A stretch of 64,000 nt of DNA, taken from NCBI GenBank assembly GCA_947588005.1, contig CANPYE010000002.1, positions 3,733 through 67,732 of the forward strand. Reading direction: 5' to 3'. Source of the stretch: an uncultured Lachnospiraceae bacterium. GTDB taxonomy: Bacteria > Bacillota > Clostridia > Lachnospirales > Lachnospiraceae. The position numbers and the translations under genes were made by a program. Shown here in pieces: positions 2 to 18,876 of the stretch. Positions within the stretch are counted from its first letter, which is position 1. Each line of letters opens with the position of its first letter. The notes under the pieces were generated by a model. It was not told where the DNA came from. It made no database searches and worked only from the letters and a program-made list of their open reading frames with translations.

Positions 2-655
2 CGGATCCACGCAATGAACCGCTTCGTCCGCTTCCTGACGGAATACGACAAAGACATGTGGCTGCCGTTAAAGGACTTCCGCCTCCACTCCGTAAAATTA
101 CAGAAAAAGTCCTTCTCCGACACCGTCATTTCCAATAAAGACTATGAATACATGAAACGGCGGCTGAAAAAGGACAAACGGATGACATGGTATTTCGTGG
201 TGCGTTTTCTCGGCGCCACCGGCGCACGGGTCAGCGAGCTGGCGCAGATCAAGGTGGAACATCTGGCGCTTGGCTATCTGGACCTGTATTCCAAGGGCGG
301 CAAGCTGCGGCGCATCTATTTTCCAGACTCCTTATCCGCCGAGGCCCTGGCCTGGTGCGAGACGAAGAACCGGAAAAGCGGCTTTCTTTTCATCAACCGG
401 CAGGGCCGCCCCATCTCCTCCCGCGGGATCCGCTGGCAGCTAAAGCATTACGCCCGGCTGTACGGAATCGACGAAAATACCGTCTATCCCCACTCCTTCC
501 GCCACCGCTTCGCCATCAATTTTCTGGCGCAGTTCAACGATATCTCGCTTCTGGCGGACCTGCTGGGGCATGAAAATATAGAGACCACCCGGATCTATCT
601 GACGAAAACCGGCAAAGAGCAGCAGGAGCTGCTGGACGAGCTCGTCACATGGTAG
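2..655 (+). CDS. Tyrosine recombinase/integrase, 5'-truncated by the window edge
   Basis: Catalytic motifs TGARVSEL, KGGK, HSFRH and LGHENIETTRIY; the frame stays open upstream of ATG 14 to the window start. Confidence 0.9.
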   Translation, partial: RIHAMNRFVRFLTEYDKDMWLPLKDFRLHSVKLQKKSFSDTVISNKDYEYMKRRLKKDKRMTWYFVVRFLGATGARVSELAQIKVEHLALGYLDLYSKGGKLRRIYFPDSLSAEALAWCETKNRKSGFLFINRQGRPISSRGIRWQLKHYARLYGIDENTVYPHSFRHRFAINFLAQFNDISLLADLLGHENIETTRIYLTKTGKEQQELLDELVTW

Positions 656-2169: not shown

Positions 2170-3726
2170 CTACGCGTTTACGCCGTCTTCATACTTAAAA
2201 TAATCGAAATCCGCCGGTTTTCTGCTTCCGCAGCCGCCGTTATTGGCATAGATGCCCACCAGCGTCCCCGTATGCCGCTTCCGATCCTCAGGCACTCCCT
2301 CATCGCACAGATAAATGCAGTTCTCAAGAACCCCCGCGGTCTTCCAATCGCGGCCGTCATAGCTATAGGAAAATGTCCTGGTCAGTCCCTTCACATCCAC
2401 CGCCAGCCAGACCGCCGCTTCCTCCGGGGAAGGTATCTCCGCAATAAGCTCCTCGCCACGGTTTCGGTTGATCACCAGCTGCAGCTTTCTTCCGTCCTCA
2501 TAGCAGACGGCAAACCTCGCATACGTCACGGTACTGTAATAGCAGGTAAGACCCGCCTGTTCTCCGTTGCGGTCCGGATAAAATTCCACCTTTGTCTCCG
2601 CATGGTAGGACAGCTCCTGCTCTCTCCGCAGAAGCGTATTTTTGGCCCGGATCTCATCCAGCCTGCCGTCCCGCGTCCAGATCCGGAAATAGCCCGGCCG
2701 CTCCGTTAGCGACCAGGAGCCGTTATCCGGCGTCCTGACGAACTCCCACTCCCGGCGCAATTCCTTCTCATCGAAATCGTCCGCTGCCTGCGTCTCAAAT
2801 GTATGCTCCGGAAGTGCGGGCGCCGTCTGCTCGAGGCTTGGGCCCTTTCCGTAATTGATCGTGAACCATCCGTCGTCCAGCCACTGAACCGGATCCAGGG
2901 CCGTCTCCCGGCCGACCGTAGTGTAACGCCCTCCGTTCTGCCGGCCGCACAGATAATAGCACCACCACTGGCCATTCTGATCCTGCACGAGCTTGCCGTG
3001 CCCGGCCCTCTGGATCGGCGCGTCGGGATCCGTCTGCCGCATCACGGGATTGTAAGGAGATTCCTCATAGCGGCCGAACAGCTCCGTACTCCGCGCCACA
3101 TTGATCCCATGGCCGTAACCGGTCCCTCCTTCCGCCACCATGCAGTAATAGTATCCGGACTTTTTAAAGACGTGCGGGCCTTCCGAAGCGCGCTCCCCCG
3201 TCCCGTTCCAGACAGTCCTGCTTTCCCCGGTCACAGCCAGGCTGTCCTTCGAAAGAGGCACCGCCTGCGCCGCGCGGGCAATGATCATATACCGGCTCCC
3301 GTCTTCATCCGCGAAATGCGAAGGATCGATATTATCTTCTTCCAGGCAGACCGGCTTGCTGTAAGGACCCTCCGGCCTGTCCGACACCATGACAAGCTGC
3401 CGCCGCAGGACATTATTCCCCCGCAGGCCATCCCCATTCAGCCTGAGCGTCGCAAAAATATAGTATTTTCCGTCCACGCAGGAGATATCCGGCGCCCATA
3501 TCCCGTGAGAATCCTTAATGTCGCTTAAGTCCAGCCACTCGGGATTCGTGATGGCATGTCCTACGATATGCCAGTGTACCATATCCCTGGAATGGGAAAT
3601 GGGAATCGCCGGAAAATACTGGAAACTCGAATTTACCATGTAGAAATCATCGCCGACCCTGATAACGGAAGGATCCGGGAAGAATCCCCGCTGCACCGGA
3701 TTATGATAAACTCTTTCACCTCTCAT
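2170..3726 (-). CDS. GH43 beta-xylosidase/arabinofuranosidase
   Basis: NPVQRGFFPDPS, WAPD, IDP and EGPH motifs plus a C-terminal beta-sandwich; GGAGG before ATG 3726. Confidence 0.9.
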   Translation of the reverse strand: MRGERVYHNPVQRGFFPDPSVIRVGDDFYMVNSSFQYFPAIPISHSRDMVHWHIVGHAITNPEWLDLSDIKDSHGIWAPDISCVDGKYYIFATLRLNGDGLRGNNVLRRQLVMVSDRPEGPYSKPVCLEEDNIDPSHFADEDGSRYMIIARAAQAVPLSKDSLAVTGESRTVWNGTGERASEGPHVFKKSGYYYCMVAEGGTGYGHGINVARSTELFGRYEESPYNPVMRQTDPDAPIQRAGHGKLVQDQNGQWWCYYLCGRQNGGRYTTVGRETALDPVQWLDDGWFTINYGKGPSLEQTAPALPEHTFETQAADDFDEKELRREWEFVRTPDNGSWSLTERPGYFRIWTRDGRLDEIRAKNTLLRREQELSYHAETKVEFYPDRNGEQAGLTCYYSTVTYARFAVCYEDGRKLQLVINRNRGEELIAEIPSPEEAAVWLAVDVKGLTRTFSYSYDGRDWKTAGVLENCIYLCDEGVPEDRKRHTGTLVGIYANNGGCGSRKPADFDYFKYEDGVNA

Positions 3727-3810
3727 CTTTCTGCCTCCATTTTCTGCCGGATCCTTTTCTTCCTCCGGCAATCAACCTCTATTTTAATCCAGATTCGCTC
3801 ATTGTGCAAC

Positions 3811-3932
3811 GTATAAAAATGCAGAAAGTGTGCTGCCGGTTCCCTGCCCGCATGGAAATACAAAAAACGCGTCACCAGCGCATTGCCTGCATGGAAATGT
3901 AAAAAGAGCGTCACCGGCGCTCTTTTTGCATA
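3811..3932. repeat. Three tandem 39-bp units of a dispersed hairpin repeat family; the last unit is the likely spoIIID terminator
   Basis: Units start at 3811, 3850 and 3889 (GCATGGAAAT...GCGTCACC.GCGC); hairpin AAAAAGAGCG-TCACCGG-CGCTCTTTTT at 3901-3927. Confidence 0.85.
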
Positions 3933-3945
3933 CTGCGTTTACGAC

Positions 3946-4221
3946 CTATTCATCTTCCTTGCTGCACATCTGGAGCCGGTGCTGATACTTCTCCCGCGTC
4001 GCCAGCCCGCCGCGGATGTGCCGCTCAGACTTATTCACGTCCAATACGATGCGTGCGGCCGCCGCCAGGGATGGGTTGATATGTTCCAGTCTCTCCGTGA
4101 CGTCCTTATGCACTGTGGATTTCGAAATCCCGAACTTCTTCGCCGTCTGTCTCACCGTCGCGTTGTGGTTTATGATGTAATTGGCGATGTCCACCGCACG
4201 TTCTTCGATATAATCCTTCAA
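3946..4221 (-). CDS. spoIIID: Stage III sporulation transcription factor SpoIIID (TTG start)
   Basis: MKDYIEER..ATVRQTAKKFGISKSTVHKDVTERL..NKSERHIRGGLATREKY. Confidence 0.97.
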   Translation of the reverse strand: MKDYIEERAVDIANYIINHNATVRQTAKKFGISKSTVHKDVTERLEHINPSLAAAARIVLDVNKSERHIRGGLATREKYQHRLQMCSKEDE

Positions 4222-4277
4222 GGTGTCCCCCGAGAATGTTTTTTACATTCTATGAGGAGGCGGGGCGGGTTATGACA
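4107..4277. repeat. 171-bp direct repeat, copy A (spoIIID promoter plus first 38 codons)
   Basis: Matches 6306-6476 with 4 mismatches (offset 2199). Confidence 0.97.
4247..4275 (-). promoter_or_regulatory. Sigma-E promoter of spoIIID
   Basis: TCATA-16 nt-CATAGAAT; spoIIID is sigma-E dependent in Bacillus and Clostridia. Confidence 0.7.
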
Positions 4278-4341
4278 GCAATACCGTGAGTATATCCGCT
4301 ATGGTCGCTTCTCCTGCAGACTTGCTATACATCGTGCTCAT
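4270..4341 (-). pseudogene. Probable stub of a HEPN partner gene (23 codons, MSTMYSK...)
   Basis: Its ATG overlaps the MNT stop region as in coupled MNT-HEPN pairs; it runs into the spoIIID repeat. Confidence 0.35.
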
Positions 4342-4765
4342 ATACGACAACCCCCTCTCTCTCAGCTGTCTCGACAGCCGTTCCGGTCAAATAATCATAA
4401 TTCACAACATCCGCCCTGCCTTTTGTAACACTGGATGTCACGCTCCGCATATTCCCTGTAAACGGTCTCAGAACACCATCCTCATCATAACAATCATCCT
4501 TCCAGTCAATGCAGATATCCAGATCGCTGGTTACATCGCAATCATAACGAATCGAACTGCCAAAAATAATGATCTTTAACACCTCCGCATCGTTCCTGGC
4601 CGCTTTCACAATCTCACTTACCATTTTTTGTTTAATCGGATGAATTCTATTCACTTCACAAAAAGAATTCTTGTCCACGATACTGTTAAATTTCCAGTTT
4701 TTTTCCTTTCTTGCCGACAGATATTCTTTTGTCGTCACGGAACCACCATGAAGCCTTTGCCTCAC
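4325..4765 (-). CDS. Minimal nucleotidyltransferase (MNT) domain protein
   Basis: IIIFGSSIRYDCDVTSDLD fits GS-X10-DXD. Confidence 0.85.
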   Translation of the reverse strand: MRQRLHGGSVTTKEYLSARKEKNWKFNSIVDKNSFCEVNRIHPIKQKMVSEIVKAARNDAEVLKIIIFGSSIRYDCDVTSDLDICIDWKDDCYDEDGVLRPFTGNMRSVTSSVTKGRADVVNYDYLTGTAVETAEREGVVVYEHDV

Positions 4766-4795
4766 AGCGGTTCCCTTATTTATCTCTGCATCTCC

Positions 4796-4835
4796 ATTTT
4801 GCTGCTACAGTATGCACCGTGGACTTGGAAATTCC
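4796..4835 (-). other. Third, diverged spoIIID-core junction (att-like site)
   Basis: Encodes GISKSTVHT; 21/25 identity to the spoIIID core and 16/20 identity to the junction at 6291-6310. Confidence 0.75.
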
Positions 4836-5056
4836 CTTACGTCAAACAGGCTTTTACTTCCTTTTTCAGCCCATGACCTGACAGTCTCCGCTCGGCTTGC
4901 TATTTACCAAAAATAATTCCGCTTTCTATATCCCAGTTGTAAAATGAAATATTATTTTGAAATTTTGGCAATCGGGTTGAAAAATCAAATATTTTACAAT
5001 ATAATGAGAATGATTTTATATATCGTTTTGCAGCAATGCTGAACGGAGGAAAATGA

Positions 5057-5263
5057 ATGCCTATCTCATACAATAGATTGTGGAAACTGATGATTGATAA
5101 AAGCATAAATAAAACGAAGCTGCGCTCACAGGCTGGCATTTCATCCAACGCTATGGCAAAGCTCGGCAAAAATGAGTCCGTGCAGGTGGAAGTGCTGGTG
5201 AAAATATGCAACTGCCTTGGATGCACGATGGACGACATTATGGAAATTCTGTCGGAAGAATAA
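5057..5263 (+). CDS. Cro/C1-type (XRE) HTH regulator
   Basis: ISYNRLWKLMIDK..AGISSNAMAKLGKNESV..KIC..L.C...DI; GGAGG RBS. Confidence 0.9.
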   Translation: MPISYNRLWKLMIDKSINKTKLRSQAGISSNAMAKLGKNESVQVEVLVKICNCLGCTMDDIMEILSEE

Positions 5264-5327
5264 GTTCGGTTTTGGATACTGAAACTATTATGATAGGATT
5301 GCTTAACTATAATCGGAGGTACTGACC

Positions 5328-5375
5328 GTGGCTGAAAAAAACAACGCCAACATCGGCTTTGAAAAACAAATTTAG
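5328..5375 (+). pseudogene. hsdM: N-terminal stub of type I R-M methyltransferase
   Basis: GGAGGT RBS then GTG-AEKNNANIGFEKQI-stop, resembling the HsdM N-terminus of Firmicutes. Confidence 0.65.
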
Positions 5376-5380
5376 CGGCT

Positions 5381-5520
5381 TAGTCGGGATTATTTGTCTT
5401 TGGGGTTCCACCGCCTAAAACTCGGATTAAAGCCGTGAACGGTTGCCGATCCGTTGAATCATCGTAGTATTTACTGAAAATAGCCTGCGCTTGCTGCTCT
5501 AAATTATTGTTTATTACAGA
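5381..5520 (-). pseudogene. hsdS: Internal fragment of type I R-M specificity subunit
   Basis: INNNLEQQAQAIF (conserved helix) followed by LGGGTPKTNNPD (TRD start). Confidence 0.7.
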
Positions 5521-5607
5521 ACATTTAATAAAATAATATAATAGGAAACGTGCCGTTTCTCAATGTAGTTAATGGACTAAAATGTTTGCCCCAAAGGAGA
5601 TGATTTT

Positions 5608-5910
5608 ATGAGTGATACTGTATTTACAATAGAAAAAATTGTAGCCTTGGTAAAACCGTTGGCTGAAAAATATCAAGTTCAACAGATTTATCTGTTTGGG
5701 TCATACGCAAGGGGAGAAGCCGGTGCAGATAGTGATTTGGATTTTCTGGTATATGGGGGAGAAAATTTTAAACTTACTAAAATTTTTTCTCTCGCAGAAG
5801 AATTACGAGAAGTGTTGAATAAAAAAGTGGATGTGTTTGAAATTCACGAGATTAATATGGACAGTGATTTTTATAAGACAATCATGAAAGAAAGGTTGCT
5901 GGTGGCATGA
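5608..5910 (+). CDS. MntA-like nucleotidyltransferase antitoxin
   Basis: LFGSYARGEAGADSDLD; overlaps the HEPN gene (ATGA). Confidence 0.9.
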   Translation: MSDTVFTIEKIVALVKPLAEKYQVQQIYLFGSYARGEAGADSDLDFLVYGGENFKLTKIFSLAEELREVLNKKVDVFEIHEINMDSDFYKTIMKERLLVA

Positions 5911-6254
5911 AATATTCGGATCAACAACGTGTTCAAAAGATATATGATAATGCAGTAAAGCTTCATAATTATATCAAGGAAAATCATGTCAGCAAAGAAG
6001 ATTTGCTAAAGGAATTATCCCTGCAATGGCTTGTCACAACACCGTTGTATAATATAGGTGAACATGTCTATAACTTGTCAAAGAATTATAAAGAGTCGCA
6101 TCATGAAATTCAATGGGCGATGATTTCCGGACTCAGACATCGCCTGGTACATGATTACGATGGGACGAATTGGAACATCATCGCCGATGTTGTTTTCGAT
6201 GAGTTGCCGATTTTAATAACGCAATTAAAAGAAATTCTGGATAAAGATCAATAA
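5907..6254 (+). CDS. HepT-like HEPN (DUF86) RNase toxin
   Basis: NIGE and W.MISGLRHRLVHDY (R-X4-H-X-Y). Confidence 0.9.
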   Translation: MKYSDQQRVQKIYDNAVKLHNYIKENHVSKEDLLKELSLQWLVTTPLYNIGEHVYNLSKNYKESHHEIQWAMISGLRHRLVHDYDGTNWNIIADVVFDELPILITQLKEILDKDQ

Positions 6255-6288
6255 TTTTTGATTTCAAATACAGTCTTCAATAGCCGTT

Positions 6289-6420
6289 CTATTTTGTTAC
6301 TTCCGTATGCACTGTGGATTTCGAAATCCCGAACTTCTTCGCCGTCTGTCTCACCGTCGCGTTGTGGTTTATGATGTAATTGGCGATGTCCACCGCACGT
6401 TCTTCGATACAATCCTCCAA
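6289..6420 (-). pseudogene. spoIIID: Truncated spoIIID 5' copy (43 aa, MEDCIEER...SKSTVHTEVTK)
   Basis: Matches spoIIID to codon 38 apart from two missense changes, then diverges and stops. Confidence 0.9.
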
Positions 6421-6476
6421 GGTGTCCCCCGAGAATGTTTTTTACATTCTATGAGGGGGCGGAGCGGGTTATGACA
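6306..6476. repeat. 171-bp direct repeat, copy B (includes the sigma-E promoter at 6446-6474)
   Basis: Matches 4107-4277. Confidence 0.97.
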
Positions 6477-6478
6477 CC

Positions 6479-7579
6479 TTAATCCGCCCTAGCGAAGCCG
6501 GCCAGGAGACGTTCCAGGATGTACTGGAACAAAAGCGGAAGCGTGATTCCAAAAAACAGGTATACCAGCCGGAAATGCGGCGATTGGAAAGGAAGGAAGT
6601 AGTACCAAATATCTGTTTTGTACAGGCCGATCTGGAAATCATTAAACAGCGGAGTGAACTTAGCGATCACCGCCAGCGCCGTCTTTACGATCATTAACGC
6701 CATCAGATGATGCGTCATAACCGCATAGGTATGGCTTCCAAAATAAATGAGAAAGCGGCTTTTCTCAAGGGCCGGCACAAGAAGCTTTGAAACTCTGAGC
6801 CAGAAAGCGATGCCGCAGGCCGCCGCGATATACGGAACAACCGGATTTGTAAAATCATCGCAGAACGCGGCCACATATACCAGGCGGTATCCCCGTACAT
6901 GCAAAAAGAACTGAATGAGAAAAATTATGCCAAAATACAAAAAATGATTCTCGCTCCGAAAAGCCGCGCCCGCTTTGCGGTAACATATTCCCGCCTGATA
7001 AAACGGAAGGAAAAATAACGTCCGGACGACCGGCAGGTAAACGCCGGTATTTTTACCCGACATCGCAAGCATAACAGCCCCGATGCCTGCCACTAAATCA
7101 ATGAAAAGATATACCGCCTCATTTTGCAGAAATTTATAAAAAACGCGGTGTTCAAGGAGATTCACGATCTCAACGATAAACAGCGCCGGCACAAACCATG
7201 CCGCCAGATTATATATAAACTGATGGCCTGAAATGAACGGCTCGATAAAAAGATTGCGGAAGGTCATTACCCCTCCCATCGTAAAACCGGCCATATGCAG
7301 GATCTGGGCAATGCATCCGTAAATAAAATTGAAGATCAGGTACGGCAGCATAAGTCTGATGAATTTTCTCTTTATATATGCCCAAAGAGACCCGCAATGC
7401 TGATCTTTATAAAAACGCCCGGAAATAAAAAAGAACAGCGGCATATGAAAGGAATAATACGGAAAAAAGCCCTGCAAATCCAGATAATTGCTGTTTACAT
7501 GGCCATCTACGACAAAAAGCATTCCCAACGCGGACAGCAGCAAAAACTGCGGATCTAAACGCTTCGCATCCGTTTCCAT
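6479..7579 (-). CDS. Acyltransferase-3 family membrane O-acyltransferase
   Basis: VVDGH, YSFHMPLFFFISG, RL.LPY and WF motifs; multiple TM segments. Confidence 0.85.
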   Translation of the reverse strand: METDAKRLDPQFLLLSALGMLFVVDGHVNSNYLDLQGFFPYYSFHMPLFFFISGRFYKDQHCGSLWAYIKRKFIRLMLPYLIFNFIYGCIAQILHMAGFTMGGVMTFRNLFIEPFISGHQFIYNLAAWFVPALFIVEIVNLLEHRVFYKFLQNEAVYLFIDLVAGIGAVMLAMSGKNTGVYLPVVRTLFFLPFYQAGICYRKAGAAFRSENHFLYFGIIFLIQFFLHVRGYRLVYVAAFCDDFTNPVVPYIAAACGIAFWLRVSKLLVPALEKSRFLIYFGSHTYAVMTHHLMALMIVKTALAVIAKFTPLFNDFQIGLYKTDIWYYFLPFQSPHFRLVYLFFGITLPLLFQYILERLLAGFARAD

Positions 7580-7815
7580 AAGTTCTCCCGTATCTCTGTT
7601 TTATACGCTACGTTTCTTATTATACATGTATTTTCATATTTTTGGCAATATCAAACAGCAATTTGATCCACAGCGGTAGTCGAATCGTTTTTTTTAATTC
7701 AAGCTAACCTTTAAACAGTAACTTTGAATGTAGTTTATAAAATCTGAATGGGCCGCGAGGCTTTCAGCACAACGCCACCGGCCCGAAGGCCAGCGGCGTG
7801 TACGAATACTTTCTT

Positions 7816-10800
7816 TTATCTTCCGAATATTTTCCGGTACAGGCGGAATCTCCACCCGGCCATTACCAGTACGCCCGCCGCAACAAGCGCTATCATTGCC
7901 CTCTGCAGCCATTCACTGATGGCCTTAAACATTCTGATATACTGAATACCGCTGTTTCTGTTATACTGTCCGCCGGGCTGATGCGACGCGTCCGATGAAG
8001 ACTGTCCGCCGGAGGAATCTCCGTCACTATAAGCTTTCAAAGCTGCTTCCTTCTTCTCTTTCTGTTCTTTCTCCTCCTTCTCATTCTCAGAAGCGGCAGA
8101 GTTATTAACTGCCTTCAACGATCCTTTAACCATTTCCGGTGAATCTTCCGCCTTCTTCTGCGGCTTCGCCGCCGTATCCATCGGCGCTTCCTTCAGATTC
8201 GAGTTCTCCTCTTTCCGGTTTTTATCCGGTTTATGCACTTCTTCCGGCGCATTCTCGGGCTGTTCTTCTGATAGTTCATTCCCGGACTGGCCTTCCGATG
8301 GTGCATTCTCCGGTTGACCTTCCGACGGTGCGTTTTCCGGTTGGCCTTCCGACGGTGCATTCTCGGACTGGCTTTCTGACGATGCATTCTCGGACTGGCT
8401 TTCTGACGATGCATTCTCGGACTGGCTTTCTGACGATGCATTCTCAGGCTGCCCTTTCACAGCCGCATTCTCGGACTGGCTTTCTTCACTTACATTCGGC
8501 CCCTGGCCGCTGCCTTCAAAATGGTTTCCAGCTTCTTCGTTTAACTGCCTGCTGCCGCTGGATTTTTCGTGATTCGACGCGGGCTCATTGCTGTTATTCT
8601 GATTCTCGTCCTCTGTCTCGGACTGCTTGTTGTCTTCCGGTTTCTCCTTGCCTGACTCAGACTGTTCTTTGTTTTCCGGGTTCTCCTTGCCAGCCTCAGA
8701 CTGCTCTTTGTCTTCCGGATTCTCCCTGCCGGCTTCGGACTGTTCTTTATTCTCCTGATTCTCTCCGCCCGTTTCAGACTGCTCTTTGTCTTCCGGGTTC
8801 TCCTTGCCGGCCTCGGACTGTTCTTTATTCTCCTGATTCTCTCCGCCCGTTTCGGACTGCTCTTTGCCTTCCGGATTCTCCCTGCCGGCTTCGGACTGTT
8901 CTTTATTCTCCTGATTCTCTCCGCCTGTTTCGGATTGCTCTCCGCCTTTTTCCTTCGGCTGGTTCTCCTGCTCCTTATCAGGCTCCCTCTGGTCGTTGTC
9001 TTCCTGCGATGGTATTTCTTTCCAAATTGCACGGAAGAGCAAGTCTCCTACTGTTCCTCTTTCGATCACCACTTCCGTCTCATCGTGCTCTTTCTCGCTC
9101 TCCTTCTTAACTCTGATACCGTCTCCGAGCGCCCAGCCCACGAATACATACCCATCCTTTTCTGGATTCGCAAGCCGGATCTCATCCTCTACCGTATATT
9201 CCGACGGATTGAGATTCTCCCAACCGCTTCCCTCAAGCCCTTCATAGCTAATCCTGTACTTCTCGGGGACGAAGACGAATGTTACGGTATTCTCCGGTGC
9301 GCTGCCATCCTTTTCAGGATCCAGCGTGAAATACGGATGCGCGTCTCCATCCAGCTTATAGCCCTTTCCCGCCTGACTGCGGACGACCTCTGGATCCGCG
9401 TTGACCACGAAGCCGGCCCCCAAAACCGGCAGTCCGATTCTTTCCTCGATCACAGTGCCGTCCATGTATTGGTATACGACCCTGTAGGTCCGTCCCGTAA
9501 TCTTGGCATACTCGAAAATGATCTCGTTTGCGCCGGTTTTCAGTGTTACGGATTTGCTCAGTCCATCCGCAGCATACCCTTCAAAGCCCTTCGCTCTTAC
9601 GGTCACCTGCGTACCTGCAATTCCAAACCGGGTCTCCGGCTCTGCCAGTTTATCTCCGGATTCCTTATCGATGTAGCTCACAGTGTAATAGGAAACAACA
9701 GCCTCGCTTTCAGGTACATAAACAATAAGGATGATCTGCCCCGCGCCTTCCAGCACTTCATTGTGAATCTCCACCGCCACATAGCCTTCTATCTTTACGG
9801 GCTGGGCATCTGTCATTTCCCCGATCAGTCCATATCCCGCAGTTGTTTCAACCGCATCTTCTTCAGCGCCTTTCAGTACATGCTTTACACCATAGGCCAT
9901 TTCTTCCGCTGTCAGGGTCACCGTCACATTATAGACTTCTCCATCCTTTAGATTCTGTCCCTGCCCTGATACGACGCCATTCTCATATGTCAGTTTGAAC
10001 CCGGGCGCCGCGCTTACAGAGCCGACTGCATATCCCGCGTATTCTCCCGGGAGCGGGTAGAAGAAATCGTAAATGACATCTCCATCGTTCTCAGTACCCT
10101 CGACCGAAATCAGATCCACGCTGACCAGATCCTTATTCAATTTAACCATCACATTGACAGATACCTGCGGAATCCGGTCCATTACCGGTTCTTTCAGCAG
10201 GCCCTCGTAAACCGCGACAGTCGCGATCTGCGGCTCGTCTCCCTGCGGAGGCTCTCCCTGAGGCGCATCTCCCTGTACTGCACTCACCTGCGGGCCATTC
10301 CCTGACGGGGGGTTCTCCTGCAAGACATTGTCTGGCCGGGCACTTCTCCTGGGCGCACTTTTCCGTGGGAGCCCGGCCGCCCTTTTCTGCGGCTGGTTTT
10401 CTTCGCTTTTGTTCTCCGCAGCTTCGCTCTCTTTCTCCGCCCCAGGTACGGACTGGCTCTCCAGCTCCAACTCCGGCTGATTCCCTGCCTCAGGTGCGAG
10501 CTGGCTCTCCGGCTCGATCTCCGGCTGGTTTCCTTCGCCGCTATTCTCCGCCGTTTCGCGCCCTTTCTCTACCCCGCCGTTTTCTGCAGCTTCGCTCTCT
10601 TCCTCTTCCCCGCCGTTTTCTGTAGCTTCGCTTTCCTTCTCTGCTGCGCCGTCTTCCGCAGCTTCTCTTTCCTTCTCTGCTGCGCTGTCTTCCGCGGCTT
10701 TACTTTCCTTCTCTGCTCCGCCGTCTTCCGCGGCTTCGCTCTCTGCTGCCTCATCGCTGGCTTCTCCCCCACTGAATCCGTCATCAATGGATTCTCTCTG

Positions 10801-10959
10801 ATCATCGGAACCGGAACTGATCATGGTACCCTCAGATCCAGCTGCGTTTTCTGCCGCAAATACCATTCCTGCATTCGCCCCAATATGAGTGACTGCCATC
10901 ACCAACACCAACAAAAATACCATGAACCTCCGATAACCCTTTCCTGCTCTTTTTAACAT
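7816..10959 (-). CDS. Large cell-surface protein with MucBP-like and InlB B-repeat-like domains and acidic repeats
   Basis: Signal peptide; YTVSYID..G.KLA..AK.FEGY; NPSEYT..L.NP.KDGY.F.GW; 36-, 39- and 27-bp repeats; C-terminal TM and basic tail. Confidence 0.75.
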   Translation of the reverse strand: MLKRAGKGYRRFMVFLLVLVMAVTHIGANAGMVFAAENAAGSEGTMISSGSDDQRESIDDGFSGGEASDEAAESEAAEDGGAEKESKAAEDSAAEKEREAAEDGAAEKESEATENGGEEEESEAAENGGVEKGRETAENSGEGNQPEIEPESQLAPEAGNQPELELESQSVPGAEKESEAAENKSEENQPQKRAAGLPRKSAPRRSARPDNVLQENPPSGNGPQVSAVQGDAPQGEPPQGDEPQIATVAVYEGLLKEPVMDRIPQVSVNVMVKLNKDLVSVDLISVEGTENDGDVIYDFFYPLPGEYAGYAVGSVSAAPGFKLTYENGVVSGQGQNLKDGEVYNVTVTLTAEEMAYGVKHVLKGAEEDAVETTAGYGLIGEMTDAQPVKIEGYVAVEIHNEVLEGAGQIILIVYVPESEAVVSYYTVSYIDKESGDKLAEPETRFGIAGTQVTVRAKGFEGYAADGLSKSVTLKTGANEIIFEYAKITGRTYRVVYQYMDGTVIEERIGLPVLGAGFVVNADPEVVRSQAGKGYKLDGDAHPYFTLDPEKDGSAPENTVTFVFVPEKYRISYEGLEGSGWENLNPSEYTVEDEIRLANPEKDGYVFVGWALGDGIRVKKESEKEHDETEVVIERGTVGDLLFRAIWKEIPSQEDNDQREPDKEQENQPKEKGGEQSETGGENQENKEQSEAGRENPEGKEQSETGGENQENKEQSEAGKENPEDKEQSETGGENQENKEQSEAGRENPEDKEQSEAGKENPENKEQSESGKEKPEDNKQSETEDENQNNSNEPASNHEKSSGSRQLNEEAGNHFEGSGQGPNVSEESQSENAAVKGQPENASSESQSENASSESQSENASSESQSENAPSEGQPENAPSEGQPENAPSEGQSGNELSEEQPENAPEEVHKPDKNRKEENSNLKEAPMDTAAKPQKKAEDSPEMVKGSLKAVNNSAASENEKEEKEQKEKKEAALKAYSDGDSSGGQSSSDASHQPGGQYNRNSGIQYIRMFKAISEWLQRAMIALVAAGVLVMAGWRFRLYRKIFGR

Positions 10960-11109
10960 TTTTCTTCATCTCCTTTTTATTGAATTTTTGCCGTTCAGCT
11001 GAATCTGAACTATGTCTTCCCTTCCGGCAGCTTTATGTTATCACACATTTTTTCAGGGAGTTAGGTAGTTTCATGACTTAAAAATAGGACTATTTTGACA
11101 TTCCACGCC

Positions 11110-11148
11110 AAAAAAGCAGGCCATCCGGCAAAACCGGCGCCTGCTTTC
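11110..11148 (-). terminator. Intrinsic terminator after the CapA-family gene
   Basis: AAAGCAGGC...GCCTGCTTT hairpin with a U tract on the minus strand. Confidence 0.6.
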
Positions 11149-11183
11149 TGTGTATTTTCCATTATTCAATTATATCGCCTCTC

Positions 11184-12449
11184 CTATGGCCTCGCCTTCC
11201 CTGTGATTCCGGTATAAAGGTTCCACATCGCATCCTTGGAAAAACCAAGTCCCACCAGATTGTGCGCGGCTGCCAGCTCATCCGGATACTCATCCAGACG
11301 GTAAGTCGTAACCAAAGGCCCCTGCTGATGGGTCACCAGCGGAACCAGGTCGTAACCGGTTATTTCTATAGGAGCGCCGCCATTTCCGGTCTTTTTCACC
11401 GTAATATCCGCCATGCCGCCAAGCACGCGGGGAAGACGGTTCTGGGCCGACAGATAATTTCCAAGGCTGTAATAGACGAGCCCTGTGCGGCCCGCCGGAG
11501 TCGTCACCATGCCGAAAGGCTCCAGCACATGCGGGTGCGCGCACAGTACAATATCCGCGCCCAGATCGATAAAACGGTTCACCTGCTGCCGCTCATAAGC
11601 AGTCGGTGTGTATTCGTATTCATCGCCTACATGGAGAACCGCAATCAGCAGATCGCAGTTGGCCCTTGCTTCCCCCATGACCGCCTCGATGCCGCCGTCC
11701 GTCAGCAGATCCACACAATATTCACGGCCGCGGGGCTTCTTAAAGCCATTCAGTCCATATGTATAATTTACAAAACCGACGCGGATCCCATTGCTGGTAA
11801 GATAACGGATATCGCTGTCCTCCGCCGTATCATGAATCCCCAGATAACAGATATCCGGATAATGATTCTTCCAGAAATCGATCGTATTCTGGATCCCGCC
11901 ATATCCCCGGTCCATCGTGTGATTGTTGGCGTGAGCGACCACATCAAACCCGGCGGATACAATGGAATGGCCGATGCTTTCCGGCGTTCCGAAGCAGGGA
12001 AAATCCGCGAAATCGGCCGGATTGCTCACCATGATCGTTTCCTGATTGATGATCGCGATATCCGCTTCCTCGATATCCTTCTTCACATGTTCAAAGAGCT
12101 GGTCGAAATTAAAGCTGCCGTCAGCCTGCTGACAGTACCGGAAAATGCGCGCATGGATCAGATCGTCGCCCACCATGCGTATGACGATCTCGTCCTTTTC
12201 TCCGTAAGAACCCAGCGGGCCGGAAGCACCCGAAGAAGACGATCCCGCCGCCAAACCCGATGCATTTCCACTCTCCTGCCCCAGCGGACCAAGCGGGCCA
12301 TACGTCTGCTCCGAGGAACTTTCGTTTTCCGTTTCCAGCGATCCTAACGGTCCCTGCCCTGTCTCCGACGCAAAACTGACATTTCCCGAAAATCCCCCCA
12401 GTATCACAGCCAGCGCTAAACCAGCCGCCAATCCTTTCCCGAATCTCAT
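11184..12449 (-). CDS. CapA/PgsA-family secreted metallophosphoesterase
   Basis: GD..IH, INQET, ANNHTMDRG, LHVGDEY, HPHVL and YSLGN. Confidence 0.88.
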   Translation of the reverse strand: MRFGKGLAAGLALAVILGGFSGNVSFASETGQGPLGSLETENESSSEQTYGPLGPLGQESGNASGLAAGSSSSGASGPLGSYGEKDEIVIRMVGDDLIHARIFRYCQQADGSFNFDQLFEHVKKDIEEADIAIINQETIMVSNPADFADFPCFGTPESIGHSIVSAGFDVVAHANNHTMDRGYGGIQNTIDFWKNHYPDICYLGIHDTAEDSDIRYLTSNGIRVGFVNYTYGLNGFKKPRGREYCVDLLTDGGIEAVMGEARANCDLLIAVLHVGDEYEYTPTAYERQQVNRFIDLGADIVLCAHPHVLEPFGMVTTPAGRTGLVYYSLGNYLSAQNRLPRVLGGMADITVKKTGNGGAPIEITGYDLVPLVTHQQGPLVTTYRLDEYPDELAAAHNLVGLGFSKDAMWNLYTGITGKARP

Positions 12450-12509
12450 AGCGTTTTTGTCTCTCCTTATACGTTCTGTATTCCGGCTATTCCATCGGAT
12501 AAACGATCT

Positions 12510-12806
12510 TTACAGCAGCTGCAGCGCCAGCACCAGCGCGCAGCATCCCAGTGATACAATAAACAAACTCACTCTGTTATATGCCAGCACCATAGCGGCT
12601 GCGAAGCCCACCCACGCGATCCAGGTCTCGTCGGTGATCGAAAGGATCGCCGGAAATGTCATCACTGCCAGCGTCACATACGGCACATAGGTCAGAAACG
12701 ACCGGAACGTCCGGTTCGTGATCTCCTTTCGCAGAAGCGTCAAAGGTACTGCCCGGATAAAATAGGTCGTCAGCGCCATTACCAAAATATAAATGTAATT
12801 TCTCAT
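12510..12806 (-). CDS. azlD: AzlD branched-chain amino acid transport protein
   Basis: TY.IR.VP..FL.YVP; overlaps the azlC stop. Confidence 0.85.
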   Translation of the reverse strand: MRNYIYILVMALTTYFIRAVPLTLLRKEITNRTFRSFLTYVPYVTLAVMTFPAILSITDETWIAWVGFAAAMVLAYNRVSLFIVSLGCCALVLALQLL

Positions 12807-13735
12807 GACAGAGACGCCTCCTTTCCGTCCGCCGCGGTTCCCGCCGTTTCTCCGGTGTCCGCGAGCCCAGCCGTTTCTCCGATAACCGCAGTTCCAGCCG
12901 CTTCTCCGGCACCCGCGCTCCCAACCGCATCCCCGGCACCCGCGCTTCCTGCCGTTTTCCCGGCGTCCGCAAGCTTCGCCGCATCCCCGGCACCCGAAAT
13001 TCCAGCCGCTTTTTCACTTTCCGCGGTCTCCTCCCCGATCGGGAACAGCACCGCCGCTGCGAAGGAAATTACCAGCGTCAGGATAATGATCTTCATTCCC
13101 GACGAGATGAAATCGAACACCGGCAGCATCTGGAACACCGCGCTGGCACCCATGGAAATGAAAATGATCGGCAGCAGAATTTTATTGTCTCTGGCCGCCG
13201 GCATGAAGATCGCGATGAACATACCGTAAAGAGCCATATTCATTGCGTTCAGGATCGAGGGCGGCAGCATCCCCGTAGACAGGATCCCGAGAAGCGTCCC
13301 CAGCGTCCAGCCCGGTATCGCCACGCTCATGGCGCCGTACATATACCAGGGATCCAGCTTCCCCTTCTGGCCGACAGCCAGCCCGAATATCTCATCCGTG
13401 ATGCCAAAGGCCATGATCAGCCGGTGATAAAACGGCATTTGCTGATCCACCTTCTGGGACAGGGCGCAGGACATCAGGCAGTAACGCAGATTAATGACCG
13501 CCTGGGAGATCAAAAGCTCCAGATACGGCGCCCCCGCGGCAATGATCGCGAAGGACGCGAACTGCCCGGCGCTGGTCAGGTTGGTTAAGGACATGGTCGT
13601 GGCCTGCGCCGCCGTGAGATTCGCACCCCTGGCGGCAATGCCGATGGTGATGGATACCACAAAATATCCCAGCATAACAGGAATACCGTCCCGCATTCCC
13701 CTCATATATACATCGCGATGCATAATCCATTTCAC
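12803..13735 (-). CDS. azlC: AzlC-family permease with an Ala/Gly-rich C-terminal extension
   Basis: G.RDGIP..LGY, SAGQF, INLRY and TDE.F. Confidence 0.88.
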   Translation of the reverse strand: MKWIMHRDVYMRGMRDGIPVMLGYFVVSITIGIAARGANLTAAQATTMSLTNLTSAGQFASFAIIAAGAPYLELLISQAVINLRYCLMSCALSQKVDQQMPFYHRLIMAFGITDEIFGLAVGQKGKLDPWYMYGAMSVAIPGWTLGTLLGILSTGMLPPSILNAMNMALYGMFIAIFMPAARDNKILLPIIFISMGASAVFQMLPVFDFISSGMKIIILTLVISFAAAVLFPIGEETAESEKAAGISGAGDAAKLADAGKTAGSAGAGDAVGSAGAGEAAGTAVIGETAGLADTGETAGTAADGKEASLS

Positions 13736-17856: not shown

Positions 17857-18876
17857 TCAATTCTTGAGATCCAGACCCTTCAGCAGGTCGCCCAGTCCTG
17901 TGGTAACCGGCGCGGAATTCTTGTAATGGAAATCGCTCTTCTCCTCGCGGCCTTCCCTGGGCTCGCGTCCCTCACCACGCGGCGCGCGGGGCTCGCGCGG
18001 CTCTCTCGCGGGCCTCTCGTCGTCTTCCTCGAGAGCCTTCATGCTCAGGCTGATCTTGCCGTTCGCCGTGTCGCGGATCTTGACCTTCACGGTCTGTCCT
18101 TCCTGAAGGACAACGCCCGGATGCTTGATCCTCTGACGGCTGATCTGCGACACATGCAGAAGTCCGGAAACTCCCTCTTCCAGACGTACGAACGCACCGT
18201 AGTCCTTCAGACTCTCCACAACGCCCTCTACAATGGCGCCGGGAACATATTTCTCCATTCTGGCCTTGCGCTCCGCGTCCCTGCGCTCGCGCAGCAGCTC
18301 CTTGGCGGACAGGACCAGTCTCTTCTTCTCCGGATCCACCGTGATAATGTAAGTGTCAATGTGCTTGCCGACGAACTCTTCCAGCTTCTCCACATAGTTC
18401 AGCGCGATCTGGGACGCCGGGATGAACGCCTTCATATCATCAACGAACGCGATGGCTCCGCCCTTGACGATCTCCTTGACCTTTACATTGATGACTTCCT
18501 TATCTTCCATCTTCTGGCGCAGCTCTTCCCACTTCTCTGCGCTTACGGATCCGTCGTCCACGAATCCGCGGCTGCGCTTCTTCGCGTGCTCCTTGTAGGA
18601 CTTCTCAAGCTCCTCCTTGAAGTCCTCCATGGTCTCGGTGGGCTCAGCCGGTTTCGCCGGTTCAGCCTCAGCGGCGGGTTCCGCGGCTTCCGCCTTCTCC
18701 GCGGCGGGTTCCGCAGCCTCTGCCTTCTCCGCGGCGGCCTCAGCGGCGGCTTCCGCGGCCTCTGCCTTCTCCGCGGCGGCCTCAGCGGCGGCTTCCACGG
18801 CCTCGGCTTTCTCCGCGGCTGCTTCCGCAGCGGCTTCGATGTTGTCTGTTTGCGCCTTCAGCATTTCTTCACTCAT
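17857..18876 (-). CDS. S1 RNA-binding domain protein (two S1 domains) with an Ala/Glu repeat N-terminus
   Basis: VKGG..AFIPASQ, RLVLS.K, YGAFV.L..G.SGLLHVSQIS and KISLS.K. Confidence 0.88.
   Translation of the reverse strand: MSEEMLKAQTDNIEAAAEAAAEKAEAVEAAAEAAAEKAEAAEAAAEAAAEKAEAAEPAAEKAEAAEPAAEAEPAKPAEPTETMEDFKEELEKSYKEHAKKRSRGFVDDGSVSAEKWEELRQKMEDKEVINVKVKEIVKGGAIAFVDDMKAFIPASQIALNYVEKLEEFVGKHIDTYIITVDPEKKRLVLSAKELLRERRDAERKARMEKYVPGAIVEGVVESLKDYGAFVRLEEGVSGLLHVSQISRQRIKHPGVVLQEGQTVKVKIRDTANGKISLSMKALEEDDERPAREPREPRAPRGEGREPREGREEKSDFHYKNSAPVTTGLGDLLKGLDLKN

Follow-up and report, generated by a model that had tools for sequence, protein, structure and literature searches.

Within the mother cell, SpoIIID acts as the switch between the sigma-E and sigma-K programmes. 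The described elements that interrupt mother-cell regulator genes mostly lie elsewhere: skin splits sigK in Bacillus subtilis, with the recombinase SpoIVCA, and in Clostridioides difficile, where skinCd has CD1231 and a directionality factor (PMC5025042), and gin, with GirC and GirX, splits gerE in Bacillus cereus ATCC 10987 (PMC5595907). Galperin et al. 2022 (bioRxiv 10.1101/2022.02.25.481979) state in one sentence, with Table S3, that a skin-like element interrupts spoIIID of Ruminiclostridium cellulolyticum. That element has the same target gene as those discussed here and is known from the paper's statement on one genome; no family, site, fossils or duplication is described there. The papers that we examined on elements in sigK, spsM, gerE, spoVFB and spoVR make no mention of spoIIID as a target, and our literature search found no other paper that pairs "skin-like" with spoIIID and none that pairs intervening elements with the Lachnospiraceae. 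Here we analyse the spoIIID locus of a 64,000-nucleotide stretch of DNA (hereafter the window) from an uncultured Lachnospiraceae bacterium (GenBank assembly GCA_947588005.1, contig CANPYE010000002.1, positions 3,733 to 67,732). A first-pass annotation of the window had known of no description for spoIIID; our search found that one sentence.

In the window, a promoter and the first 38 codons of spoIIID are followed by a cargo island, and then by a second promoter and a complete spoIIID. We put the probability at about 0.8 that this locus is the fossil of a skin-like spoIIID-intervening element of a large serine recombinase (LSR) family, bypassed by a duplicated promoter and 5' half. This was the first of two models offered by the first-pass annotation (a skin-like element whose recombinase was lost and which a duplication bypassed), and it is the best reading of a locus that retains attL, has lost attR and the recombinase, and contains a complete gene. 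The family of elements that split spoIIID is widespread and barely described.

The duplicated front end of spoIIID and its attL half-site

The features that bear on this reading are the following.

3946-4221, minus strand: intact spoIIID, 91 aa from a TTG start (Pfam SpoIIID, E=1e-41 over residues 2-81)
4085-4130 (approximate limits), minus strand: regenerated attB, with ...ACAGTGCAT/AAGGACGTC... uninterrupted at codons 38/39 (attB, attL and attR sequences compared)
4107-4277, minus strand: repeat copy A, with sigma-E-type promoter, ribosome-binding site and codons 1-38 (repeat comparison)
6259-6305, minus strand: P' half-site of attL, an element-derived arm with the family motif ...GTAACAAAATAGAACGG... 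(alignment with the left end of a live element in genome G022)
6306-6476, minus strand: repeat copy B, with the native promoter and spoIIID codons 1-38, ending at the crossover (repeat comparison, open reading frame (ORF) list)

Between positions 3000 and 8000, a repeat finder returned one long direct repeat, 4097-4277 against 6296-6476 (181 nt, 96%). Strictly aligned, the repeat is 171 nt long (4107-4277 against 6306-6476), with four mismatches at 4211/6410, 4218/6417, 4258/6457 and 4264/6463; within the coding part, 2 of 114 nt differ. Repeat finder and strict alignment agree with the earlier description of two 171-bp copies that differ at four positions and start at the -35 box. The gene order is also as first described: in the direction of transcription, a promoter and codons 1-38 ending in STVH, the cargo, and a promoter with intact spoIIID. 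The first base of both copies lies 1 nt upstream of GTCATAA-N14-CATAGAAT, boxes that are kept across the genus in the alignment (in copy A, the -35 box GTCATAA is at 4270-4276 and the -10 box CATAGAAT at 4247-4254). As sequences, the boxes of both copies fit the sigma-E promoter type published for Clostridioides difficile, whose -35 region has an ATA motif and whose -10 box is of the CATA type (PMC3789822).

Copy A leads into the whole gene: codons 1-38 of intact spoIIID lie within it, codons 39-91 are the original 3' half, and the protein is 97-99% identical in amino acids to the homologues of four relatives (genomes G004, G009, G021 and G002). The coding part of copy B (6307-6420, minus strand) holds 38 spoIIID codons, followed by TEVTK and a stop, to give a 43-aa ORF (6289-6420). 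With both its -35 and -10 boxes intact, the promoter of this truncated copy probably still fires in the mother cell, which would probably yield the 43-aa peptide and an RNA antisense to the HepT/MNT gene pair of the island.

Immediately behind codon 38 of copy B lies the P' half-site. Over 6259-6475, the window and the attL of the live element in G022, a genome of the same genus, are 93.6% identical, and the P' motif is common to the attL of G017, G028, G031, G348, G398 and G369 (in three copies). Behind the 5' halves stands a conserved arm, ...AAAYAGAACGK..., and before the 3' halves stands an inverted copy of it (the P arms of attR); together they make an imperfect palindrome, as would be expected for the attP of a serine integrase. 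The window has the crossover of this family, CAT/A at codons 38/39, together with the P' half-site, and its truncated gene ends at codon 38 (STVH) as do those of six split relatives, so that the insertion is at a fixed site in the ORF of a mother-cell gene. On these alignments, the truncated copy and the P' arm (6259-6476) are a genuine attL of the LSR element family.

The opposite end of such an element is missing. We found no recombinase domain in any cargo ORF of 4278-6305 (ORF list, Pfam), and neither an LSR of the element's own nor an LSR of 500-542 aa near an attR is present in the window. A search for the family LSR in the window's own genome (G000) returned only LSRs of 24-31% identity on other contigs of this assembly, a metagenome bin (metagenome-assembled genome, MAG) of 232 contigs that is 81% complete. 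Beside copy A there is no attR or P arm, only a novel joint at 4277/4278 (joint J) and the full attB. The lost recombinase of the first-pass annotation is borne out by the cargo without a recombinase domain and by the absent attR. Nor is this a germ-line gene interruption that requires excision, as spoIIID is complete (91 aa) and has its own promoter, at 3946-4277. Because the gene is complete and has its own promoter, we infer that the cell, with a complete spoIIID driven by a sigma-E-type promoter and a complete attB, does not need excision to sporulate.

A layout bounded by a repeat could also arise if the bin contig had joined strains with a split gene and strains with an intact gene through that repeat. 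The incomplete and fragmented MAG would allow for such an artefact, as would the Logan contigs, which break inside the repeat and leave 6476-6599 uncovered. The best-matching runs are rabbit-gut metagenomes, and exact Logan contigs from the best run (5-6x) cover 3500-4136, 4228-5442 and 6026-6335. Both novel junctions, 4277/4278 and 6305/6306, therefore lie within exact contigs of even depth, and the same layout is found on single contigs in six other genomes, including the one-contig genome G369. Moreover, the copies differ at four positions and are therefore distinguishable in assembly. We consider an artefact the least probable of all the alternatives discussed here. Since the Logan contigs are short and broken in the repeat, they provide no linkage evidence across the whole stretch. 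A joint 4164>6435 in run X6 was discounted: on one side it extends for only 25 nt, and its offset does not match the repeat.

Live elements and recombinase-less islands in other genomes

A SpoIIID protein search of 41 relatives turned up genomes with the gene present only as two halves, and six split genomes (G011, G022, G028, G031, G032 and G348) were inspected at sequence level. In all six inspected split genes, the 5' half ends in ...KSTVH and the 3' half begins with KDVTERL. LSRs lie at or near the 3' half in four: 521 aa in G022 and 500 aa in G011, both from the window's genus, and 542 aa in G028 and 507 aa in G348, from beyond it. These LSRs are 42-53% identical to one another and have Resolvase, Recombinase and Zn_ribbon (Zn_ribbon_recom) domains. 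The G028 halves are on one contig, 21.6 kb apart, with the LSR abutting the 3' half and polysaccharide genes as cargo, while the cargo of the live G022 element opens with a type I hsdR. The first-pass annotation had proposed that spoIIID is an integration hotspot at one codon. The six relatives split at STVH/KDVT, with serine recombinases at or near the 3' half in G022, G011, G028 and G348, confirm this and show that insertion at this codon is not peculiar to the window.

Split genes appear to be common. In a draw of 401 genomes of the order Lachnospirales, a SpoIIID match was present in 306, about 50 of which had only two matches of half-gene strength; in the window's family, this was so for 16 of the 72 matching genomes. 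These frequencies (~1 in 6) are rough, being our own count from the genome table with a subset verified at sequence or coordinate level, and they suggest that many gut Clostridia may depend on a little-studied DNA excision for sporulation.

Several individual loci of the survey are worth recording. The recombinase ORFs of G022 and G028 (L043:622-2187 and L039:7649-9277) read through attR and take their last codons from the spoIIID 3' half, so that excision would alter the C-terminus of the recombinase. G348 (L070, G348:C52:24000-43999) encodes a full-length but only 60% identical spoIIID paralogue at 18627-18875; a spoIIID interrupted by a 16.6-kb element with the 507-aa recombinase lies 166 nt downstream of it. 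G290:C1:9319-11734 has spoIIID in two parts, the 5' one covering aa 1-44 and the 3' one aa 10-83, encoded on opposite strands with 2 kb between them, an arrangement that may be an inversion rather than an insertion. In the one-contig genome G085 (G085:C1:2412920-2533159), a span of 120 kb separates the halves; the insert is a very large element or else a composite.

The layout seen in the window is also recurrent. In G154, G398, G174, G127, G218 and G369, which represent five genera in four families, at least one 5' fragment precedes an intact gene, and both are on the same strand of one contig. There are two such fragments in G218 and four, over 30 kb, in G369. The recurrent repeats span about -41..-70 to +112..117 relative to the start codon, and in seven independent loci no more than ~15 nt separate the upstream edge from the -35 box. 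No serine recombinase was found in seven such islands, and the cargo of the other islands includes a zeta toxin, RhuM, AAA_14/DUF4143, a kinase, TraG and ClpP relics, transposases and metabolic genes. When the regions upstream were compared, the right ends of the islands had no common sequence between genomes, which argues against a mobile family with a defined right end. A mirror form exists in G244, where an intact gene is followed by a Schlafen/AlbA_2 gene, a decayed attR and a 3' fragment, with the duplicated part running from +117 to approximately the stop codon.

The second model of the first-pass annotation, an element that carries a replacement promoter and 5' end, would in its strict form be an active family of recombinase-less cassettes, whose own site is the promoter, codons 1-38 and P' arm and which an LSR acting in trans inserts into attB. 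Such a family would account for the presence of the layout in several families of bacteria, always with a P'-type left end, and for an exchange point at the core in G127 (see below). By half-site type, however, a site of this kind is an attL, and the right ends are unrelated. The integrases of Bxb1, phiC31 and A118 are LSRs that pair attP with attB, or attL with attR given a directionality factor. To our knowledge, LSRs do not pair attL with attB, and on prior knowledge of serine-integrase site selectivity we would reject LSR integration of a circle with a 5'-fragment/P' site into attB. We regard the strict form as improbable. As an active attP design, then, the second model is not upheld by the seven islands; what remains of it is the G127 locus, where the replacement front end is foreign and is joined to a native 3' half at the crossover.

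Two genomes bear on what happens after a site has been regenerated. In G369, homology between the four stacked units is limited to the repeat and ~80-100 nt of element end, and the most upstream unit is the most diverged, the order that would be expected from serial insertion into the downstream-most site. G156 (L102-L105; contigs C42, C29, C40 and C16) has two different attL junctions, one attR, an additional promoter-plus-5' context and no intact spoIIID. The left end and first genes of its second element are also those of the G127 island; the ClpP-type ORF is longer. Read from these junctions, G156 has a regenerated site that was invaded again. A regenerated attB would be open to new insertion, and such fossils would therefore stack up. 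Front-end duplication accounts for the stacked spoIIID 5' fragments of other genomes, and in annotation truncated spoIIID copies can be taken as old attL markers, not random pseudogenes.

Two further fragments were set aside. An extra 5' fragment of G017 is on a separate contig and 5 of its 38 residues differ from the genome's own intact gene, a possible bin contamination. A downstream fragment of G005 (aa 64-91) lies away from the crossover and has no connection with the mechanism of front-end duplication.

The cargo island and the origin of the second front end

The island between the two copies has the following features.

4278-4324, no strand: right end of the island, with joint J at 4277/4278 (blastn, alignment, upstream comparison)
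4325-4765, minus strand: orphan MNT-type nucleotidyltransferase (Pfam Polbeta/NTP_transf_2)
5057-5263, plus strand: XRE-type helix-turn-helix (HTH) gene, ahead of hsdM in G009 and G002 (Pfam HTH_26, 4e-17; 91-93% nt identity to G009/G002)
5328-5375, plus strand: hsdM relic, the first 15 codons (5328-5372) and then a stop (100% match to residues 1-15 of the 501-aa G009 HsdM)
5401-5514, minus strand: hsdS relic, 38 residues of the central conserved region, in opposite orientation to hsdM (tblastn with G009 and G002 HsdS)
5608-5910, plus strand: MNT antitoxin-type nucleotidyltransferase (Pfam Polbeta 6e-17, NTP_transf_2 4e-15)
5907-6254, plus strand: HepT-like HEPN RNase toxin with the Rx4H motif RHRLVH (Pfam HepT-like, 2e-13)

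The cargo (4278-6305) has a GC content of 38.6%, between flanks of 57% and 51%. The ORF list, Pfam and tblastn agree with the contents first reported for it, an AT-rich stretch with an MNT-HEPN pair, hsdM and hsdS relics, an XRE gene and a second MNT. The genes at 5608-5910 and 5907-6254 overlap by 4 nt and, by their domains and motifs, are a predicted MntA/HepT-type MNT-HEPN pair (the MNT motif GSxxRGE...DxD reads GSYARGE..DSDLD in the translation), with the HepT-like gene as the first cargo gene beside attL. Only this pair looks intact within the island, and it may help to keep the island in place. Elsewhere in metagenomes, sequences homologous to the MNT/HepT cassette extend to 6259-6262, where the P' arm starts, and no further.

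Joint J and the adjoining island sequence are also found in G009 and G002, where the islands are larger and include the HEPN partner of the MNT, the XRE gene, a 501-aa hsdM and hsdS (Pfam Methylase_S was assigned on the G009 HsdS). The island of the window does not have a complete type I restriction-modification (R-M) system of hsdM, hsdS and hsdR, whereas hsdM and hsdS are complete in both of these genomes. In G009, a 103-aa HEPN lies between the MNT and the promoter; this partner is deleted in the window, whose MNT at 4325-4765 is 85.5% identical in amino acids to that of G009. Position 5373 is likewise a deletion joint: in other strains, hsdM sequence follows on the contigs beyond this point. 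The window's island shares 88-93% identity with those of G009 and G002, approximately the same divergence as the flanks, and G004 retains a 123-nt piece of the island. Because the larger islands stand at the same joint J, the window's cargo is a deletion derivative of a type I R-M/XRE/MNT-HEPN island, and the joint at 4277/4278 would predate the split of G000, G009 and G002.

The R-M relics raise the question of whether a site-specific recombinase was involved at all. Nobusato and colleagues reportedly proposed, in 2000, that R-M genes insert with long target duplication, and an R-M island of this kind could have produced the 171-nt repeats as its target duplication. Type I R-M relics bracketed by a long direct repeat are what this would leave. 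However, the repeat ends exactly at the LSR crossover, and the next 47 nt match the P' half-site found in live elements, so that the inner left edge is an LSR half-site at a fixed crossover, and the same end occurs with unrelated, non-R-M cargo in other genomes. We therefore consider this explanation very unlikely.

Which of the two front ends is native can be read from the flanks. G021 has an empty site, in which the downstream flank, spoIIID and the promoter are followed by ~200 nt to the homologue of window position 11223. The first ~10 nt upstream of copy B resemble this empty site, whereas island sequence lies upstream of copy A; copy B is therefore the native front end, still in place. 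Both G000 copies have at least 4 common substitutions that are absent from G004, G009, G021, G002 and G022. The simplest reading appears to be an old event, with gene conversion since then keeping the two copies alike, and conversion between the repeats would have erased the evidence for the origin of the second front end.

The comparisons show that an element integrated site-specifically at the CAT/A core of codons 38/39, so that the native promoter and codons 1-38 became joined to the P' half-site. The other end of the element, with its recombinase gene, P arm and attR, is lost, and a second promoter with codons 1-38 stands fused in frame to the original 3' half, giving a whole gene and a whole attB. 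This second front end could have been made locally, if a break at attR was repaired from an excised or intact sister allele and selection kept those products that contained a promoter. A short repair tract at a recombinase-made break, together with selection for a working promoter, is our suggestion for the clustering of repeat edges near the -35 box. At present, site-specific excision of the island would no longer be possible; homologous recombination between the two 171-nt copies would be its only route of loss, leaving an empty site like that of G021.

Alternatively, the second front end could have arrived with the island. A fossil from another host and a live element downstream of it would have been excised through the distal attL and attR as a composite circle with a normal attP and integrated, and the live part would later have been excised at the proximal attL, leaving a native 5' fragment, the island, an imported front end and the native 3' half. 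Accretion and mobilisation of this sort are known for integrative and conjugative elements and cis-mobilisable elements (ICE/CIME) and for composites of the staphylococcal cassette chromosome (SCC). One case for import is G127 (L066, G127:C6:43500-56000; intact gene 11121-11363), where spoIIID is a chimera. Its native 5' fragment, 9.5 kb upstream, is 3-4/114 nt from the relatives, while the intact gene has a foreign promoter and codons 1-38 that are 21-25/114 nt from them, with 1-2 aa changes; codons 39-80 are again native (5/126 nt). The switch falls between +108 and +122, at the crossover, which fits site-specific joining, for example by excision of a live element downstream of an imported fossil. 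As there are only 1-2 aa changes, the G127 front end must have evolved as a working gene. The second element in the regenerated site of G156, downstream of a fossil, and the limited homology between the stacked units of G369 also point towards import.

Other observations point the other way or leave the picture mixed. The window's copies are only 2/114 coding nt apart and have common lineage-specific changes, and the joint-J front ends of G000, G009 and G002 resemble one another no more than the native genes of the genus do, which looks like vertical descent with gene conversion. G218 (L067, G218:C31:2500-19000) shows the reverse of G127: its two fragments are 2 nt apart from each other and 22-33/114 nt from the intact gene and the relatives, so that the fragments look foreign and the intact gene is native. 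All copies in G369 are alike, and no composite circle was observed. We consider import a serious possibility, if still the less probable account of the locus as a whole; for the founding of this window's second front end taken on its own, we give local copying and import roughly even odds. In our view, the sequences suggest that both occur across loci.

Several observations weigh against a bypassed, locally duplicated fossil. The junction at 6476/6477 lies in the uncovered interval and is given by the assembly only. The foreign front end of G127 is not explained by purely local duplication, and the repeat edges cluster at the -35 box more tightly than a random copying event predicts. The G009 and G002 island contigs end in hsdS, and the G002 flank contig ends without a 5' fragment, so that the left ends of these islands are unassembled. 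Finally, no live element with this island's cargo was found, and the lost right end is reconstructed from relatives only. Two scans of metagenome contigs for the P' arm pattern had no matches, and a scan of genome contigs returned only G022 and two other 5'-fragment loci, with no live twin of the island. The G022 element and the G009 R-M island have no DNA match, and each therefore has a different type I system. A low-stringency search of 6477-13000 for an older, decayed 5' fragment further upstream also found none.

More tentatively, spoIIID may act as a ratchet: each duplication of the promoter and 5' half would freeze an element as an island and renew the attachment site, so that recombinase-less islands of defence genes and other cargo stack up in front of the gene. 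The fossils themselves may still be mobile. A live element downstream could carry them as a composite (distal attL with attR) and deliver foreign front ends, giving G127-like chimeras. We hold this to be doubtful at present. Taken alone, this locus is inert; as a type, it records elements that are frozen into islands while their site is renewed and re-used, a testable route for the domestication of mobile elements into fixed defence islands.

Two neighbouring regions were also noted. A 4.7-kb segment at 6479-10959 is absent from the G021 empty site and contains an Acyl_transf_3 gene (6479-7579, minus strand) and a gene for a 1047-aa repeat-rich acidic secreted protein (7816-10959, minus strand). 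Just 3' of spoIIID, at 3836-3935, there are two ~45-nt tandem units that end in a hairpin and a T-run. Similar units occur at six other places in the genome (C109 twice, C102, C30, and C43 twice), and these look like a small intergenic repeat or terminator family.

Comparison with known systems

The live spoIIID elements resemble skin in that they have an LSR with Resolvase, Recombinase and Zn-ribbon domains, lie at one fixed site in the ORF of a mother-cell regulator, and carry the recombinase by one junction. Unlike skin, they target spoIIID and not sigK, and in the window there is neither recombinase nor attR, the gene is whole, and excision is neither needed nor possible. The gin element is likewise small, not a prophage, and in the gene of a mother-cell HTH regulator; unlike the window's fossil with its duplicated gene front, gin is live and splits gerE. 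The long target duplications of R-M genes share with the window R-M cargo within a long direct target repeat, but in the window one inner edge is a recombinase half-site at a fixed codon that is common across families.

SCCmec and pseudo-SCC elements at staphylococcal rlmH/orfX use Ccr serine recombinases, leave a target site that is usable after insertion, form tandem stacks and move as composites. As with SCC, insertion into spoIIID leaves a usable site, and recombinase-less cassettes pile up. In SCC, the element end restores ~15 codons at the 3' end of the gene, and each internal boundary is a usable att site. At spoIIID, by contrast, ~170 nt of promoter and 5' half are duplicated, every internal boundary is of the attL type, and a full attB exists at the downstream-most site only.

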